DNA of 64,000 nucleotides from Chrysomallon squamiferum (GCA_012295275.1 CM022665.1:48980001-49044000); one strand, 5' to 3'. Numbered from the stretch's first letter, positions 2,320-10,334 are shown. Program-made: numbers and translations. Notes: generated by a model from the sequence alone, not told the origin.

Positions 2320-2821
2320 ATAACGACTATAGCAATAATGTAGGTGAACAATAACTTTTCGAAACATCTGCCAATCGTTACTATATTCACTGACAATGAA
2401 ATGACGTGTAACGTCACTGTTTGAGTCTTGCACCCAAAGATTTCATAACCAAAGGGATGGATTTATTTGCGTACGTATGTAAATAACTGCCATTGTATCC
2501 AGTGGGTGGAAGCGAATAACACGGATTGACGTGGAGGTATGTTCTGGTCTTGATTCAGTTTCTGATTGTCGATCCGTTTTAATAGAAGGAGATGCACATT
2601 TTCGTGAAGTCTTCCGAGCGGTGGGCTAGTACCGATGATATGGAGTGCAAAACCACGTGATTACATCGACGTGCTTATTTTTGTTTTCTCTGTAGCGAAG
2701 AAATTAGAACTGGAAAAAAACTAATAATATCAACAACAACGAAAGAAGGAAGAAATCATATGTTAACCTGATGCGTAAAATTATTCACATATACGATTAT
2801 TTTCGATGTATGTTTACCGTT

Positions 2822-2939
2822 GTCTGCAGCCATACCACGTTGAAAACACCGGTTCTCGTCCATCACCGAAGTTAAACGTAGGGCCTGGTTCAGTACTTTG
2901 GATGGGTGACCGCCTGGGAACAACCAAGTGCTATAGACG
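2822..2939 (+). rRNA. 5S: 5S rRNA, degenerate or error-rich copy near the contig end
   Basis: GTCTGCAGCCATACCACGTTGAAAACACCGG...GGATGGGTGACCGCCTGGGAA with several indels relative to the other copies. Confidence 0.8.
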
Positions 2940-3309
2940 TTACGTTTTGATTATTATTTAATTATTATTATTATTGAATCTTTCAAAATATTTTCTGTTA
3001 ATTATATTAGTTTCGGACAAATGTTCTTATAAACAATCGAGGGGAAATATTAACCACGTCAGAGATGCACATCCGGAGGGGAGAAAAAAAAAGTAAAGAA
3101 AGACGATAATACTGCAGAGCTAACACATTAGCGAACATGACAATATAAACACAATAATTGTTTTTTTTTTTTTCCAGATGGCATTCCCGACAGACAAAAA
3201 ATTAGCTTGCAATGAAAATAACTGTTTAAATTTTCGATTTATTTCGAAAGGATTAAACGGAAATCTCAGAGCATAGAGGAAAATAACACTAAAATTTGAT
3301 AAAAAAAAA

Positions 3310-3605
3310 GGTCAGGTTCAGCTGTATTGTCTAGGCTGCTAACCAGTGCCTATTCTCGGATGCGATCCCACTACTACTCGACACGGAGACTTTTGCCTGC
3401 TGCGTTTCCGCCCTGGGCCATTACGTCCCTCCTTAGGGACAACCTGGTTTCTCTCGCCTCCGCGAGTTAAACCATATCGATACCGAGCTTAGTGCGGACA
3501 TCCAATCAACACAGAGCACCAGAGAACAGAACCCCCGAAGTCAAGCTGTCCACAGACCTATGCTTCCAAGTAGCTGGATTACAGGAGCTCGCCACAACTC
3601 CCGGC
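3310..3605 (-). ncRNA. RN7SL: 7SL (SRP) RNA gene
   Basis: Reverse complement begins GCCGGGAGTTGTGGCGAGCTCCTGTAATCCAGCTAC (Alu domain). It contains GTCCGCACTAAG, helix-8 GCCCAGGGCGGAAACGCAGCAGG and AGTAGTGGGATCGC, and ends at a T-run Pol III terminator (A run 3301-3309). Confidence 0.95.
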
Positions 3606-3740
3606 GATCAATATTACGTCATTCCTCGTTGTTAATTAGATCAACTAAATGACTGGCATTTGAGTACTGCCTGATTTGTTTACGATGTGTATGTAATTGA
3701 CATGGCATTGAGTATTAGTGCTTGTCATAATTACTAGGAA

Positions 3741-3777
3741 TATAAGGTAGACGCTTCTGTTTCTTCCACATTCAGTT
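3741..3777 (+). promoter_or_regulatory. TATA box (TATAAG, 3741) and cap/Inr element (CATTCAGTT, 3769-3777) for the 100-aa ORF
   Basis: TATA lies ~30 nt upstream of CATTCA/TCAGTT; the ATG is at 3812. Repeated in each unit. Confidence 0.65.
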
Positions 3778-3811
3778 TTGATTTGAATTTACAGAAAGTC
3801 ATTAGAAAACT

Positions 3812-4114
3812 ATGGAGAAATTCAGTCTGTACGCTGCACTCTACGAAACAGAGAATCGCTTCAGACGAGCCTGCGAGCAGATTGTCATGCTGAACACCAA
3901 GCTGGAAGAGCTCCAGCTCCGATACGACAAAGCCAGAGTGGACAACCACAAATCGTTCCGATACAACTTGCGTCTGAAAATGGCCACTGTTGAGGGTGTG
4001 CGTAATTCCTACTACGAATACGCCTGCTGGAAAGCAGAAACGGTGGCCGAACTGACAACGGAATTGTCAATCGTTTCGCCCGAATCGCAGTCCGATGACG
4101 AATACATGCAGTAA
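3812..4114 (+). CDS. Intronless 100-aa uncharacterised helical/coiled-coil protein with acidic C-terminus (copy 1)
   Basis: GC-richer than its flanks, TATA/Inr upstream, heptad pattern (IVMLNTKLEELQLRYDKA), identical protein in three copies, histone-type stem-loop downstream. Confidence 0.8.
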   Translation: MEKFSLYAALYETENRFRRACEQIVMLNTKLEELQLRYDKARVDNHKSFRYNLRLKMATVEGVRNSYYEYACWKAETVAELTTELSIVSPESQSDDEYMQ

Positions 4115-4152
4115 AGTGAGCCGAAAGCACATAATTATGCCTTTGAAACGGC

Positions 4153-4189
4153 GGCTCTTTTAAGAGCCATGCAAATCACTTGAAAGTGA
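4153..4189 (+). terminator. Histone-type 3' stem-loop (GGCTCT-TTTA-AGAGCC) with HDE-like GAAAGTG
   Basis: 6-bp stem and 4-nt loop matching the metazoan histone consensus, 38 nt after the stop; followed by ATGCA and a purine tract at 4182-4188. Confidence 0.8.
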
Positions 4190-4366
4190 TTGTACACAAT
4201 TGCAATATTTTCTTTGATTCGATATTATTTCATTAATTTTTAGATAATACATGTTTATGCACCCCACTTTCAAGTCAACACCTAAGCTTGGAAATGAATC
4301 AATAAATTATAAATGATTCCACTAACTGACCCACTGACTGAATACGGAAATGAAAAATAATAGTCA

Positions 4367-7488: not shown

Positions 7489-7856
7489 TTACGTTTTGAT
7501 TATTTATTAATTATTATTATTATTGAATCTTTCAAAATATTTTCTGTTAATTATATTAGTTTCGGACAAATGTTCTTATAAACAATCGAGGGGAAATATT
7601 AACCACGTCAGAGATGCACATCCGGAGGGGAGAAAAAAAAAGTAAAGAAAGACGATAATACTGCAGAGCTAACACATTAGCGAACATGACAATATAAAAC
7701 ACAATAATTGTTTTTTCTTTTCCAGATGGCATTCCCGACAGACAAAAAATTAGCTTGCAATGAAAATAACTGTTTAAATTTTCGATTTATTTCGAAAGGA
7801 TTAAACGGAAATCTCAGAGCATAGAGGAAAATAACACTAAAATTTGATAAAAAAAA

Positions 7857-8150
7857 GGTCAGGTTCAGCTGTATTGTCTAGGCTGCTAACCAGTGCCTAT
7901 TCTCGGATGCGATCCCACTACTACTCGACACGGAGACTTTTGCCTGCTGCGTTTCCGCCCTGGGCCATTACGTCCCTCCTTAGACAACCTGGTTTCTCTC
8001 GCCTCCGCGAGTTAAACCATATCGATGCCGAGCTTAGTGCGGACATCCAATCAACACAGAGCACCAGAGAGCAGAACCCCCGAACTCAAACTGTCCATAG
8101 GCCTATGCTTCCAAGTAGCTGGATTACAGGAGCTCGCCACAACTCCCGGC
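7857..8150 (-). ncRNA. RN7SL: 7SL (SRP) RNA gene
   Basis: Same motifs, with a few substitutions. Confidence 0.95.
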
Positions 8151-8356
8151 GATCAATATTACGTCATTCCTCGTTGTTAATTAGATCAACTAATTGACTG
8201 GCATTTGAGTACTGCCTGATTTGTTTACGATGTGTATGTAATTGACATGGCATTGAGTATTAGTGCTTGTCATAATTACTAGGAATATAAGGTAGACGCT
8301 TCTGTTTCTTCCACATTCAGTTTTGATTTGAATTTACAGAAAGTCATTAGAAAACT

Positions 8357-8659
8357 ATGGAGAAATTCAGTCTGTACGCTGCACTCTACGAAACAGAGAA
8401 TCGCTTCAGACGAGCCTGCGAGCAGATTGTCATGCTGAACACCAAGCTGGAAGAGCTCCAGCTCCGATACGACAAAGCCAGAGTGGACAACCACAAATCG
8501 TTCCGATACAACTTGCGCCTGAAAATGGCCACTGTTGAGGGTGTGCGTAATTCCTACTACGAATACGCCTGCTGGAAAGCAGAAACGGTGGCCGAACTGA
8601 CAACGGAATTGTCAATCGTTTCGCCCGAATCGCAGTCCGATGACGAATACATGCAGTAA
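8357..8659 (+). CDS. 100-aa uncharacterised coiled-coil protein (copy 3)
   Basis: Identical protein; one synonymous CGT>CGC change noticed. Confidence 0.8.
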   Translation: MEKFSLYAALYETENRFRRACEQIVMLNTKLEELQLRYDKARVDNHKSFRYNLRLKMATVEGVRNSYYEYACWKAETVAELTTELSIVSPESQSDDEYMQ

Positions 8660-8697
8660 AGTGAGCCGAAAGCACATAATTATGCCTTTGAAACGGC

Positions 8698-8713
8698 GGC
8701 TCTTTTAAGAGCC
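8698..8713 (+). terminator. Histone-type 3' stem-loop
   Basis: GGCTCTTTTAAGAGCC. Confidence 0.8.
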
Positions 8714-9636
8714 ATGCAAATCACTTGAAAGTGATTGTACACAATTGCAATATTTTCTTTGATTCGATATTATTTCATTAATTTTTAGATAATACACGTT
8801 TATGCACCCCACTTTCAAGTCAACACCTAAGCTTGGAAATGAATCAATAAATTATAAATCATTCCACTAACTGACCCACTGACTGAATACGCAAATGAAA
8901 AATAATAGTCATTAATAATAATAATAATAATAACAATAATAAGAATAATAATAATGATGATGAGATGATATTGATGATGATGATGATAATAATAATAATA
9001 ATAATAAATAATAATAATAATAATAAAAAGAAGAAGAAGAATAATTATGATCATAATAATAACAACAAGGACAGCAAGAAGAAGAAGAACAACAATAACA
9101 ATAATAATAGTAAGAATAATTGTAACACAAACAGTAACTGGGGAATTCCCTATAACGACTATAGCAATAATGTAGGTGAACAATAACTTCTTCGAAACAC
9201 TAAGCACCGTTACTATATTCACTGACAATGAAATGACGTAACGTCACTGTTTGAGTCTTGCACTCAGTGCATAACAAAGGGATGTGGATTATTGGTACAT
9301 GTATAAATAACTGCCATTGTATCAGTGAATAGAGAAGAATAACACGGATTGACGTGGAGGTATGTTCTGGTCTTGATTCAGTTTCCGATTGTCGATCCGT
9401 TTAATACAGAGAATGCACATTTTCGCCGAAGTCTTCCGAGCGCGGTGAACTATACCGATGATACGGAGTGCAACCACGTGATTACATCGACGTGCTTATT
9501 TTTGTTTTCTCTGTAGCGAAGAAATTAGAACTGGAAAAAAACTAATAATATCAACAACAACGAAAGAAGGAAGAAATCATATGTTAACCTGATGCGTAAA
9601 ATTATTCACATATACGATTATTTTCGATGTACTGTT

Positions 9637-9755
9637 GTCTACGGCCATACCACGTTGAAAACACCGGTTGTCGTCCCATCACCGAAGTTAAGCAACGTAG
9701 GGCTCGGTTAGTACTTGGATGGGTGGTCGCCTGGGAACACCAAGTGCTGTAGACG
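9637..9755 (+). rRNA. 5S: 5S rRNA (variant copy)
   Basis: As above, with extra substitutions (GGTTGTCG, GGGTGGTCGCC). Confidence 0.9.
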
Positions 9756-10122
9756 TTACGTTTTGATTATTTATTAATTATTATTATTATTGAATCTTTC
9801 AAAATATTTTCTGTTAATTATATTAGTTTGGGACAAATGTTCTTATAAACAATCGAGGGGAAATATTAACCATGTCAGAGATGCACATCCGGAGGGGAGA
9901 AAAAAAAAAGTAAAGAAAGACGAAAATACTGCAGAGCTAACACATTAGCGAACATGACAATATAAAACACAATAATTGTTTTTCCTTTTCCAGATGGCAT
10001 TCCCAACAGACAAAAAATTAGCTTGCAATGAAAATAACTGTTTAAATTTTCGATTTATTTCGAAAGGATTAAATGGAAATCTCAGAGCATAGAGGAAAAT
10101 AACACTAAAATTTTATAAAAAA

Positions 10123-10334
10123 GGTCAGGTTCAGCTGTATTGTCTAGGCTGCTAACCAGTGCCTATTCTCGGATGCGATCCCACTACTACTCGACACGGA
10201 GACTTTTGCCTGCTGCGTTTCCGCCCTGGGCCATTACGTCCCTCCTTAGACAACCTGGTTTCTCTCGCCTCCGCGAGTTAAACCATATCGATATCGAGCT
10301 TAGTGCGGACATCCAATCAACACAGAGCACCAGA
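10123..10334 (-). pseudogene. RN7SL: 5'-truncated 7SL RNA (5' Alu-domain part lost), fused to a Tx1 fragment
   Basis: 7SL homology stops at ...AGCACCAGA (10334); LINE ORF2 sequence follows. Confidence 0.9.

Follow-up and report, generated by a model that had tools for sequence, protein, structure and literature searches.

A tandem repeat of ~2.27 kb in Chrysomallon squamiferum joins a 5S rRNA gene, a 7SL/SRP RNA gene and a short protein-coding gene that is not a histone gene and carries histone-type RNA-end signals. The window, by which we mean the whole 64-kb stretch of DNA that was analysed, holds three full units and one half (Table 1). The tripartite repeat itself is real. As to its origin, we give roughly even weight to a local fusion of a 5S–7SL module with a histone-style gene cassette from an old mollusc and annelid family, likely amplified by unequal crossing-over and with an mRNA likely matured through SLBP and U7.

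Results

Layout of the repeat

The array has a period of 2267-2276 bp. Within each unit 5S (+) and 7SL (-) converge, as the original prediction had it and as Rfam matches to 5S and Metazoa_SRP at the gathering score bore out, while 7SL and an open reading frame (ORF) of 100 amino acids diverge; from the SRP 5′ end to the ORF ATG we measured 206 bp, where ~206 bp had been given. Compared with unit 3, identity reaches 99.1% in unit 2, 95.6% in unit 1 (2016 bp) and 98.4% in the partial unit 4. With units at 95-99% and ORF copies at 99.7-100% DNA identity, the proposed co-amplification by concerted evolution is supported. Each unit also has a histone-type stem-loop and a microsatellite, neither of which the original prediction had mentioned.

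Table 1 Coordinates of features in and beside the array (positions in the window).
Feature	Position	Strand	Remarks
5S rRNA copy 1	2822-2939	+	Rfam 66 bits; 88-90% to other copies; indel-rich
5S rRNA copy 2	5095-5213	+	Rfam 116 bits
5S rRNA copy 3	7370-7488	+	Rfam 111 bits
5S rRNA copy 4	9637-9755	+	Rfam 110 bits
7SL/SRP RNA copy 1	3306-3605	-	Metazoa_SRP 243 bits; full length, T-run terminator
7SL/SRP RNA copy 2	5578-5874	-	Metazoa_SRP 246 bits; full length
7SL/SRP RNA copy 3	7853-8150	-	Metazoa_SRP 250 bits; full length
7SL/SRP RNA copy 4, lacking 5′ part	10118-10334	-	Rfam match 10138-10352; homology really ends at 10334
7SL/cassette module junction	5875-5886		Loose contig ends at 5882, both sides, runs X1, X2, X8
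Portable gene cassette (promoter, ORF, 3′ signals)	8162-8754; ~3617-4209; ~5886-6478	+	L001 match
100-aa intronless ORF copy 1	3812-4114	+	Unnamed mollusc/annelid family; predicted helical hairpin
100-aa ORF copy 2	6081-6383	+	DNA 100% identical to copy 1
100-aa ORF copy 3	8357-8659	+	One synonymous change
Stem-loop and purine-rich downstream element copy 1	4153-4186	+	Stem-loop 4153-4168, GAAAG 4182-4186
Stem-loop and downstream element copy 2	6422-6455	+	Rfam Histone3 26.6 bits, E 1e-4, below gathering score of 34
Stem-loop and downstream element copy 3	8698-8731	+	Sequence search, alignment
(AAT/GAT/AAC)n spacer microsatellite	4356-4578; 6637-6853; 8901-9120		One per unit
Conserved spacer 5′ of 5S	4610-5094; also 2320-2821, 6885-7369, 9152-9636		No identified RNA
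Internal LINE-type retrotransposon fragment	10335-11500	-	Abuts array, outside unit; 85% to 140-666, which encodes RVT_1

The 5S of the unit is full length, and an A box, intermediate element and C box are readable at what we take to be their positions. An origin as a 5S- or 7SL-derived SINE was ruled out by the full-length genes, their own T-run terminators and the tandem arrangement. In the spacer upstream of 5S, the idea of a hidden RNA gene found no support (no meaningful Rfam match; no excess folding, z 1.09 and -0.16). The 64-kb window held no further 5S or 7SL copies outside the array.

The ORF belongs to a diverse, unnamed family

All three ORF copies are intact, with identical products. 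They fall into an unnamed mollusc and annelid family, which splits at 50% identity into 1,105 clusters and has several subfamilies within a genome; the named members come from three bivalves and one annelid, and Mizuhopecten, Dreissena, Pinctada and Lamellibrachia have annotated members. The family is under purifying selection, dN/dS having a median of 0.30 over the 68 pairs with 0.05 < dS < 1.5 and no pair reaching 1 (L024 and L066 are left out of the tree and of dN/dS). Between the window ORF and its relative L001, dS is 1.37, near saturation, and dN 0.11.

The predicted model of the protein (pLDDT 90) is a two-helix hairpin with helices 2-43 and 47-88; across the family, the core is net positive in 68 of 71 members and the tail net negative in 61. 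Taken from charge and shape only, the most likely role would be a bulk action on chromatin or nucleic acid where cells divide fast, with a chance of about one in three. The 100-aa ORF matched no Pfam family, and for the 71 members, which gave 35 weak Pfam families, the first 25 included no histone family; a histone-fold or linker-histone product was ruled out on the lack of Pfam families and the two-helix model. Sequence searches of Pfam, NCBIfam, PHROGs and PDB with the family gave nothing specific, and JGI labels some members ‘ELM1’ or ‘PhnB’, names that were dropped because Pfam backs neither. Foldseek (viral, PDB) and VIA-align found only generic hairpins for the model. The model shares its two long antiparallel helices with ESCRT-III, prefoldin and Rop-like hairpins (VIA Z 10-12), but similar scores come from dozens of coiled coils unrelated to one another, with identities of 5-17% and Foldseek E >0.05, and the matches to ESCRT-III-like Snf7/CHMP are of this generic hairpin type and do not establish homology. 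The best ESM Atlas match (0.83), an unnamed and mostly molluscan cluster, is a lead only, and homodimer prediction scored 0.02.

Related loci mostly stand alone. Of 69 related contigs, 26 end in a repeat of their start, forming closed single-gene units of 1.2-2.3 kb, none with 5S, 7SL, tRNA or histone genes; one closed contig, of 4.3 kb, holds two gene copies. That family genes form arrays on chromosomes is shown by runs of consecutive locus tags in scallop (KP79_PYT16599-16602) and in zebra mussel (DPMN_078030-078110). The original prediction had proposed a search of related genomes for 5S and SRP near the ORF; 5S adjoins only two of the 69 loci (L028, L033) and SRP none (Rfam covering 60 of the 69), and the 5S–7SL–ORF linkage looks local. 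Other neighbours are tRNA-Thr (L034, L057) and H3 (L036, L046, L047), histone H3 being the sole Pfam match among 93 neighbouring frames.

Such changing partners, joined in the window by 7SL, would also suit a selfish or virus-derived cassette, for example an escaped Polinton-like accessory gene, that borrows the histone 3′ signal for expression in the dividing germ line and spreads through homogenising arrays, possibly as DNA circles. The 26 self-closing contigs could be circles or collapsed arrays, and the extreme diversity and multiple subfamilies fit a conflict-driven gene equally well, histone genes being nearly invariant. L068, a real but broken copy with a decayed stem-loop, lies beside BIR and PHD frames and pieces that we take to be Polinton-like. 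We nonetheless consider this origin unlikely. Two scans of IMG/VR, one using the protein and the other alignment A2, detected no relative, and the neighbouring frames offered Pfam nothing beyond H3. By 7- and 8-mer counts the 26 non-coding regions share promoter-like words only and no terminal or origin motif (a single match to a CRESS-type origin word was rejected), and all-against-all blastn, which bears on non-autonomous DNA transposons, found no shared motif other than promoter ones. L068 is one locus in 69, its Polinton label is our assumption and its other frames lack a stem-loop. Polinton/Maverick accessory genes lie in elements with polymerase, integrase and capsid genes; the unit is not such a setting, and the broken L068 has its BIR and PHD frames close by.

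Histone-type 3′ signals follow the ORF

A perfect 16-nt histone-type stem-loop (6-bp stem, 4-nt loop) lies 38 nt past each ORF stop, giving three exact matches in 64 kb against 0.00 expected, and GAAAG follows 13 nt past the stem. Both elements are the same in the window and L001 despite the dS of 1.37. Among 60 relatives with enough flank, 33 have a stem-loop within 100 nt of the stop, compared with 2/60 reverse complements, 0/60 upstream windows and 15/12,000 shuffles, and a wider window raises the count to 36. (L067, L068 and L069, as weak matches, and six loci with <100 nt past the stop were dropped beforehand; five near-duplicate pairs remain, so the 60 relatives are not 60 independent events.) RAAAG occurs 8-27 nt past the stem-loop in 31 of the 36 but in only 5 of 36 control windows. 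The stem-loop is present in both halves of the protein tree, on which its labels were set by hand from the stem-loop search, or by eye or from the survey of related loci for six of them. Given these signals, the ORF mRNA likely gets its 3′ end through cleavage behind the stem-loop by the histone (SLBP/U7) machinery and not through polyadenylation, and standard poly(A) sequencing likely misses it.

Could the stem-loop instead be a relic, or functional in part of the family, with the window copy polyadenylated or carried silently through 5S–7SL turnover? Twenty-four of the 60 relatives lack it, including the H3-linked L036, L047 and L048, and AATAAA lies within 150 nt in 10 of the 24. An A-rich flank 5′ of the histone stem-loop is important for SLBP; the five bases there are ACGGC in the window copy, compared with A-rich (AAAC-type) sequence in most relatives. 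The Rfam score is below threshold, and the downstream element can form a second hairpin. The RNA runs, which are contigs with DNA admixed, gave no clear transcript and no transcript end: one contig, from a diverged copy (24 differences), has its end at 6433 within the stem-loop, and others of depth 2 continue to 6500. We still judge a relic improbable, as the element has been kept base for base between the window and L001, the three ORF copies are intact and AATAAA follows only 8 of the 36 stem-loop genes.

A sharp junction separates the cassette from 7SL

The cassette matches L001 at 74% over 602 columns and no further. Its promoter has TGACA-type sites and TATAA at 8286-8290, in blocks conserved between the window and L001, and by its sequence the window gene would be short, intronless and TATA-driven. 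Across the family, 33 of 51 TATA matches sit 101-150 nt before the match, and at least two TGACA sites lie upstream in 23/31 loci compared with downstream in 3/31. The similarity to L001 begins at the 7SL/cassette junction, the cassette starting ~10 bp from the 7SL start, and reads at the junction show the 5S–7SL and cassette modules each with other partners. Together with the relatives’ own arrays, this sharp boundary argues for a local fusion of a 5S–7SL module with a portable histone-style gene, later homogenised, and not for a replaced histone slot.

The latter had been the original prediction, in which the ORF occupied the ‘histone slot’ of a histone–5S repeat. Its histone analogy holds further than had been supposed, given the 3′ signals and the relatives beside H3 and 5S. 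That the ORF replaced the histones of an ancestral repeat, making 5S, 7SL and ORF a selected functional unit, now seems very improbable. It would account for the histone-type gene architecture and for those neighbours, and a second subfamily of spacers in the same sequencing runs suggests that the unit persisted for some time. However, the unit has no annotated histone and no histone remnant by ORF and Pfam analysis, 26 relatives form single-gene units of their own, and SRP is missing from the related loci. The unit’s 5S is moreover a minor class in the runs compared; in both RNA runs, the 5S contigs belong to another class, seven differences away from it.

The array is supported by independent runs

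The array had been placed at 2320-10334. There the repeat holds, refined to 3.5 units with an error-rich or decayed start: the first ~620 bp of unit 1 are ~89% identical, with many indels, and adjoin a 200-N gap (2120-2319), and the indels of 5S copy 1 reflect either a contig-edge error or decay of the gene. The right end, at 10334, falls within SRP copy 4, against the LINE piece. That the LINE inserts specifically into 7SL was dismissed because the junction lies inside the LINE coding region and the element is dispersed across the window. The position and ends of the array are less certain than the repeat itself.

Overlapping contigs from two DNA runs of two studies covered unit 2 in 27 of 30 bins, the three empty bins being the skipped microsatellite (runs with a share <0.2 were left out, except X8 and X11). 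The listed contig pieces lead from the spacer into 5S and from the 5S–SRP spacer into SRP. Depth of the window-type spacer was ~2,000 in X1 and ~200 in X2, as uncalibrated sums of contig depths with no single-copy reference. An assembly artefact joining unrelated high-copy repeats is thus a negligible prospect, despite the flanking gap and LINE piece, the error-rich start and the lack of a single listed public contig spanning the whole unit, as the 3.5 copies differ from one another by 1-4% and independent runs carry the same spacers into 5S and SRP.

Discussion

The gene resembles metazoan replication-dependent histone genes (RF00032, HDE, SLBP, U7 snRNP), which are short, intronless and TATA-driven, have a 16-nt stem-loop 15-60 nt past the stop with a purine-rich element ~13 nt further, and form tandem arrays with occasional 5S linkage; unlike them, its family is non-histone (no Pfam match, helical hairpin model) and highly diverse, with 24/60 members lacking the stem-loop. 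The D4Z4/DUX4 macrosatellite is also an intronless ORF in a tandem array, plausibly expressed in the early embryo, but its protein is unrelated and its unit has neither a histone-type 3′ end nor Pol III genes.

The linkage is a variant of a known 5S habit; the novelty is the gene family. Three papers (PMC6204057, PMC13525598, PMC8382920) describe 5S inside the repeats of other families, co-homogenised with them, the links being repeatedly made and lost, in agreement with the original prediction, which had cited histone clusters in mussels. Known cases are histone–5S in Mytilus and Artemia, rDNA–histone–5S in Potamopyrgus and 5S–U2 in Crassostrea. The present unit likewise has a full-length 5S in another family’s repeat, homogenised at 95.6-99.1%, but its partners are 7SL and a non-histone protein gene. 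The original prediction knew of no described 5S+7SL+non-histone ORF unit, and our literature searches found no described 5S–7SL unit, although what is reportedly a metazoan-wide survey of 5S linkage, Vierna et al. 2013, may list 5S–SRP links. In Hydractinia, SRP RNA genes form evenly spaced tandem arrays, as do 5S and tRNA genes (PMC11067881), the arrays described being for each RNA separately and not a shared unit with a protein gene. By itself, 5S–7SL linkage would be a modest addition to the known list.

Under the local-fusion reading, Pol II would start at the TATA promoter and produce a short transcript with no introns, and, with SLBP on the stem-loop and U7 snRNP on the downstream element, the mRNA would be poly(A)-minus and coupled to replication. 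A high gene dose would come from the tandem arrays, unequal crossing-over having probably amplified the fused unit. In the weakest step, the two-helix hairpin, with its basic core and acidic tail, would serve chromatin or nucleic acid in cleavage embryos or the germ line. 5S and 7SL would have no functional tie to the gene and would have been carried along by chance as the array turned over.

PMC13525598 names the acquisition of partners by 5S and other repeats as an open question, and the unit gives a dated, base-resolved example. More broadly, we are evenly divided on whether molluscs and annelids run a large, fast-evolving non-histone family through the SLBP/U7 pathway, its genes being portable cassettes of 600 bp that build arrays of their own and fuse repeatedly into 5S, 7SL, tRNA and histone repeats. 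If they do, the unit preserves a single fusion of this kind, intact junction included, and the family would have stayed unnamed because its messages are poly(A)-minus and its arrays collapsed in assemblies; poly(A) transcriptomes of aquaculture molluscs and of annelids would then under-represent it. The histone RNA-end signal is thought exclusive to histone genes, a rule that would not survive a conserved, multi-copy family of non-histone genes bearing the full signal.

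Results

Organization of the repeat unit

Rfam matches placed four 5S genes (+) and four SRP genes (−) within 2822–10352 of the window, at a period of 2,267–2,276 bp, and three ORFs of the array encoded one identical 100-aa protein. These positions agree with the layout originally predicted, in which the 5S and 7SL genes face each other, and 7SL and the ORF point apart over 206 bp. Unit 3 was 99.1% identical to unit 2, 95.6% to unit 1 and 98.4% to the partial unit 4. On its left the array borders a 200-N gap, and its initial 620 bp are indel-rich; it breaks off at 10334, within the fourth SRP gene, where an internal fragment of a LINE-type element, itself dispersed, adjoins it. 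Overlapping contigs from two DNA runs, of two studies, covered unit 2 at high depth, with pieces passing from spacers into 5S and SRP; none of the pieces from these two runs spanned a complete unit. As independent runs cover unit 2 with its spacers joined to 5S and SRP, the repeat unit is real, a claim that extends to the unit alone and not to its position, ends or copy number.

The spacer 5′ of 5S (4610–5094 and equivalents) contains a TATA-like box, GT donor-like and AG acceptor-like sites and a TATTTTTG run; neither an RNA family nor excess structure was found in it, and a different repeat family of the sequencing runs shares a conserved part of it. Fragments of the LINE-type retrotransposon family, many in number and 72–99% alike, flank both ncRNA arrays of the window, the second of which, of tRNA-Gly(TCC), continues to the window end with three copies damaged. 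A clustered family of frames had no Pfam match; three of its members end in CVVS, which we take to be a possible prenylation motif.

Other repeats and frames in the window
Feature	Positions	Strand	Remark
LINE-type fragments (endonuclease, RT, zf-RVT)	1–2119, 10335–11500, 26890–28171, 33226–37465, 48147–52153		Same family
tRNA-Gly(TCC) tandem array	52808–63365		17 genes or near-copies, ~655 bp spacing
Clustered frames, 130–200 aa	14508–15131, 18092–18655, 21615–22151, 30732–31205, 43871–44302	all −	Related to one another

The ORF belongs to a large unnamed family

The unit's ORF is a genuine gene, and its family, which has no name, is large: 50 relatives emerged from a single-sequence search and, at 50% identity, 1,105 clusters from a profile search (E up to 0.001). 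The members with a name, all hypothetical proteins, come from Mizuhopecten yessoensis, Dreissena polymorpha, Pinctada imbricata and the annelid Lamellibrachia satsuma, which makes a mollusc or annelid the probable host of the window. The family had no specific match in Pfam, NCBIfam, PHROGs or the PDB. Against its nearest metagenome locus, L001, the ORF had a dN of 0.11 and a dS of 1.37; none of 68 measurable family pairs reached a dN/dS of 1 (median 0.30, with many pairs near saturation). AlphaFold2 predicted two long helices (pLDDT 90), resembling generic hairpins only, and across the family the core is net basic (68/71 members) and the tail acidic (61/71). The JGI names ‘mitochondrial fission protein ELM1’ and ‘PhnB’, found on members in the clusters of proteins P0265 and P0295, look like annotation errors. 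Two diverged members share one unit in locus L032 (1428–1763, −, and 3755–4072, +, divergent) and in L064/L065 (head-to-tail, 69% identity).

Histone-type signals

Judged from its sequence, the unit's gene has the build of a histone gene but encodes no histone. Every ORF copy is followed, 38 nt past the stop, by an exact histone-type stem-loop, with GAAAG 13 nt beyond it. Among relatives, 60 loci were counted (69 metagenome loci, less 3 weak and 6 without enough flank; five near-duplicate pairs remain), and in 33 of them a stem-loop followed the stop by no more than 100 nt, compared with 2/60 on the other strand, 0/60 upstream and 15/12,000 shuffles. A wider search span raised this to 36, of which 31 had a purine element at the correct spacing (controls, 5/36). 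TATA boxes were concentrated 101–150 nt upstream of the match (33/51), and TGACA, presumably a TALE-homeodomain site, was enriched upstream (23/31 loci versus 3/31).

Counting against a histone-type build, 24 of the 60 relatives have no stem-loop and, in the window copies, the 5′ flank of the stem is not A-rich, the stem-loop scores below the Rfam gathering threshold and the downstream element may adopt a folded form. No transcript end for the gene could be seen in the run contigs compared. Family members adjoining H3 in L036, L047 and L048 lack a stem-loop of their own; the neighbouring H3 has one.

Arrays, partners and the cassette junction

In 26 of the 69 loci the contig closes with a copy of its beginning, as a collapsed tandem unit or a circle would, with periods of 1.2–2.3 kb and one of 4.3 kb; none of these 26 contained 5S, SRP or tRNA, or a core histone motif. 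In scallop and zebra mussel, family members carry runs of consecutive locus tags, which suggests arrays on the chromosome. A minority of loci had partners: tRNA-Thr in L034 and L057, H3 in L036, L046 and L047, and 5S in L028 and L033. SRP was found at 0/69 loci. L028, on a different tree branch, has an ORF of 48% protein identity together with 5S and the stem-loop, so 5S linkage of the family probably arose more than once. In L068 (1000–3700) a broken member, its stem-loop decayed, lies next to BIR and PHD frames and to pieces that we take to be Polinton-like.

The three-part unit is a fusion of local origin. Similarity of L001 to the window is confined to the cassette of promoter, ORF and 3′ signals (8162–8754), which begins at a distance of 12 bp from the start of 7SL. 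At the equivalent junction (5882), contigs from three runs part from the unit's sequence in both directions, the cassette having another left neighbour and SRP another upstream region. Cassette depth exceeded that of the 5S–SRP spacer several-fold in DNA run X1 and up to ~2-fold in X2, and a second spacer subfamily is present in the runs carrying the unit. The unit's 5S (5095–5213) is a minor class in X1, X2 and the further runs X8 and X11; a class with seven differences from it, which may not be the host's, had ~40 times its depth in each of the two DNA runs and is the class seen in both RNA runs.

Discussion

Linkage of 5S has reportedly been surveyed by Vierna et al. Linkage of 5S to histone, snRNA or rDNA repeats is a recurrent finding, molluscs included (PMC6204057, PMC13525598, PMC8382920). 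SRP arrays occur in Hydractinia (PMC11067881), and a review that treats rDNA together with mobile elements uses neither the term 7SL nor SRP (PMC10946416). Among the titles and abstract starts searched, mostly of non-subscription papers, we found neither a 5S–7SL unit nor a family of non-histone genes bearing histone-type ends. This linkage adds a new instance to the already known linking habit of 5S, its 5S and 7SL genes being most probably passengers.

In architecture the gene appears akin to replication-dependent histone genes; it is not one, because its product is no histone. The genes, the repeat, its junction, selection on the ORF and the conserved signals are demonstrated; the mechanism is inferred. 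Pol II would transcribe it and SLBP/U7 would process the transcript to a poly(A)-minus mRNA, a route we consider probable. The cassette would have spread by array recombination and not by an enzyme of its own, since none was found among 93 frames neighbouring family members. Whether the protein serves a host role demanding high dose in dividing cells is an even call. That the cassette is instead selfish or virus-derived seems less likely; the family's diversity and the one broken copy by the BIR and PHD frames in L068 speak for it. Action on chromatin or nucleic acid is a tentative suggestion. Our confidence declines from transcription and processing, through spread by array recombination and host role versus selfishness, to this last point. 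The part of the unit worth testing is the histone-style, non-histone family inside it.
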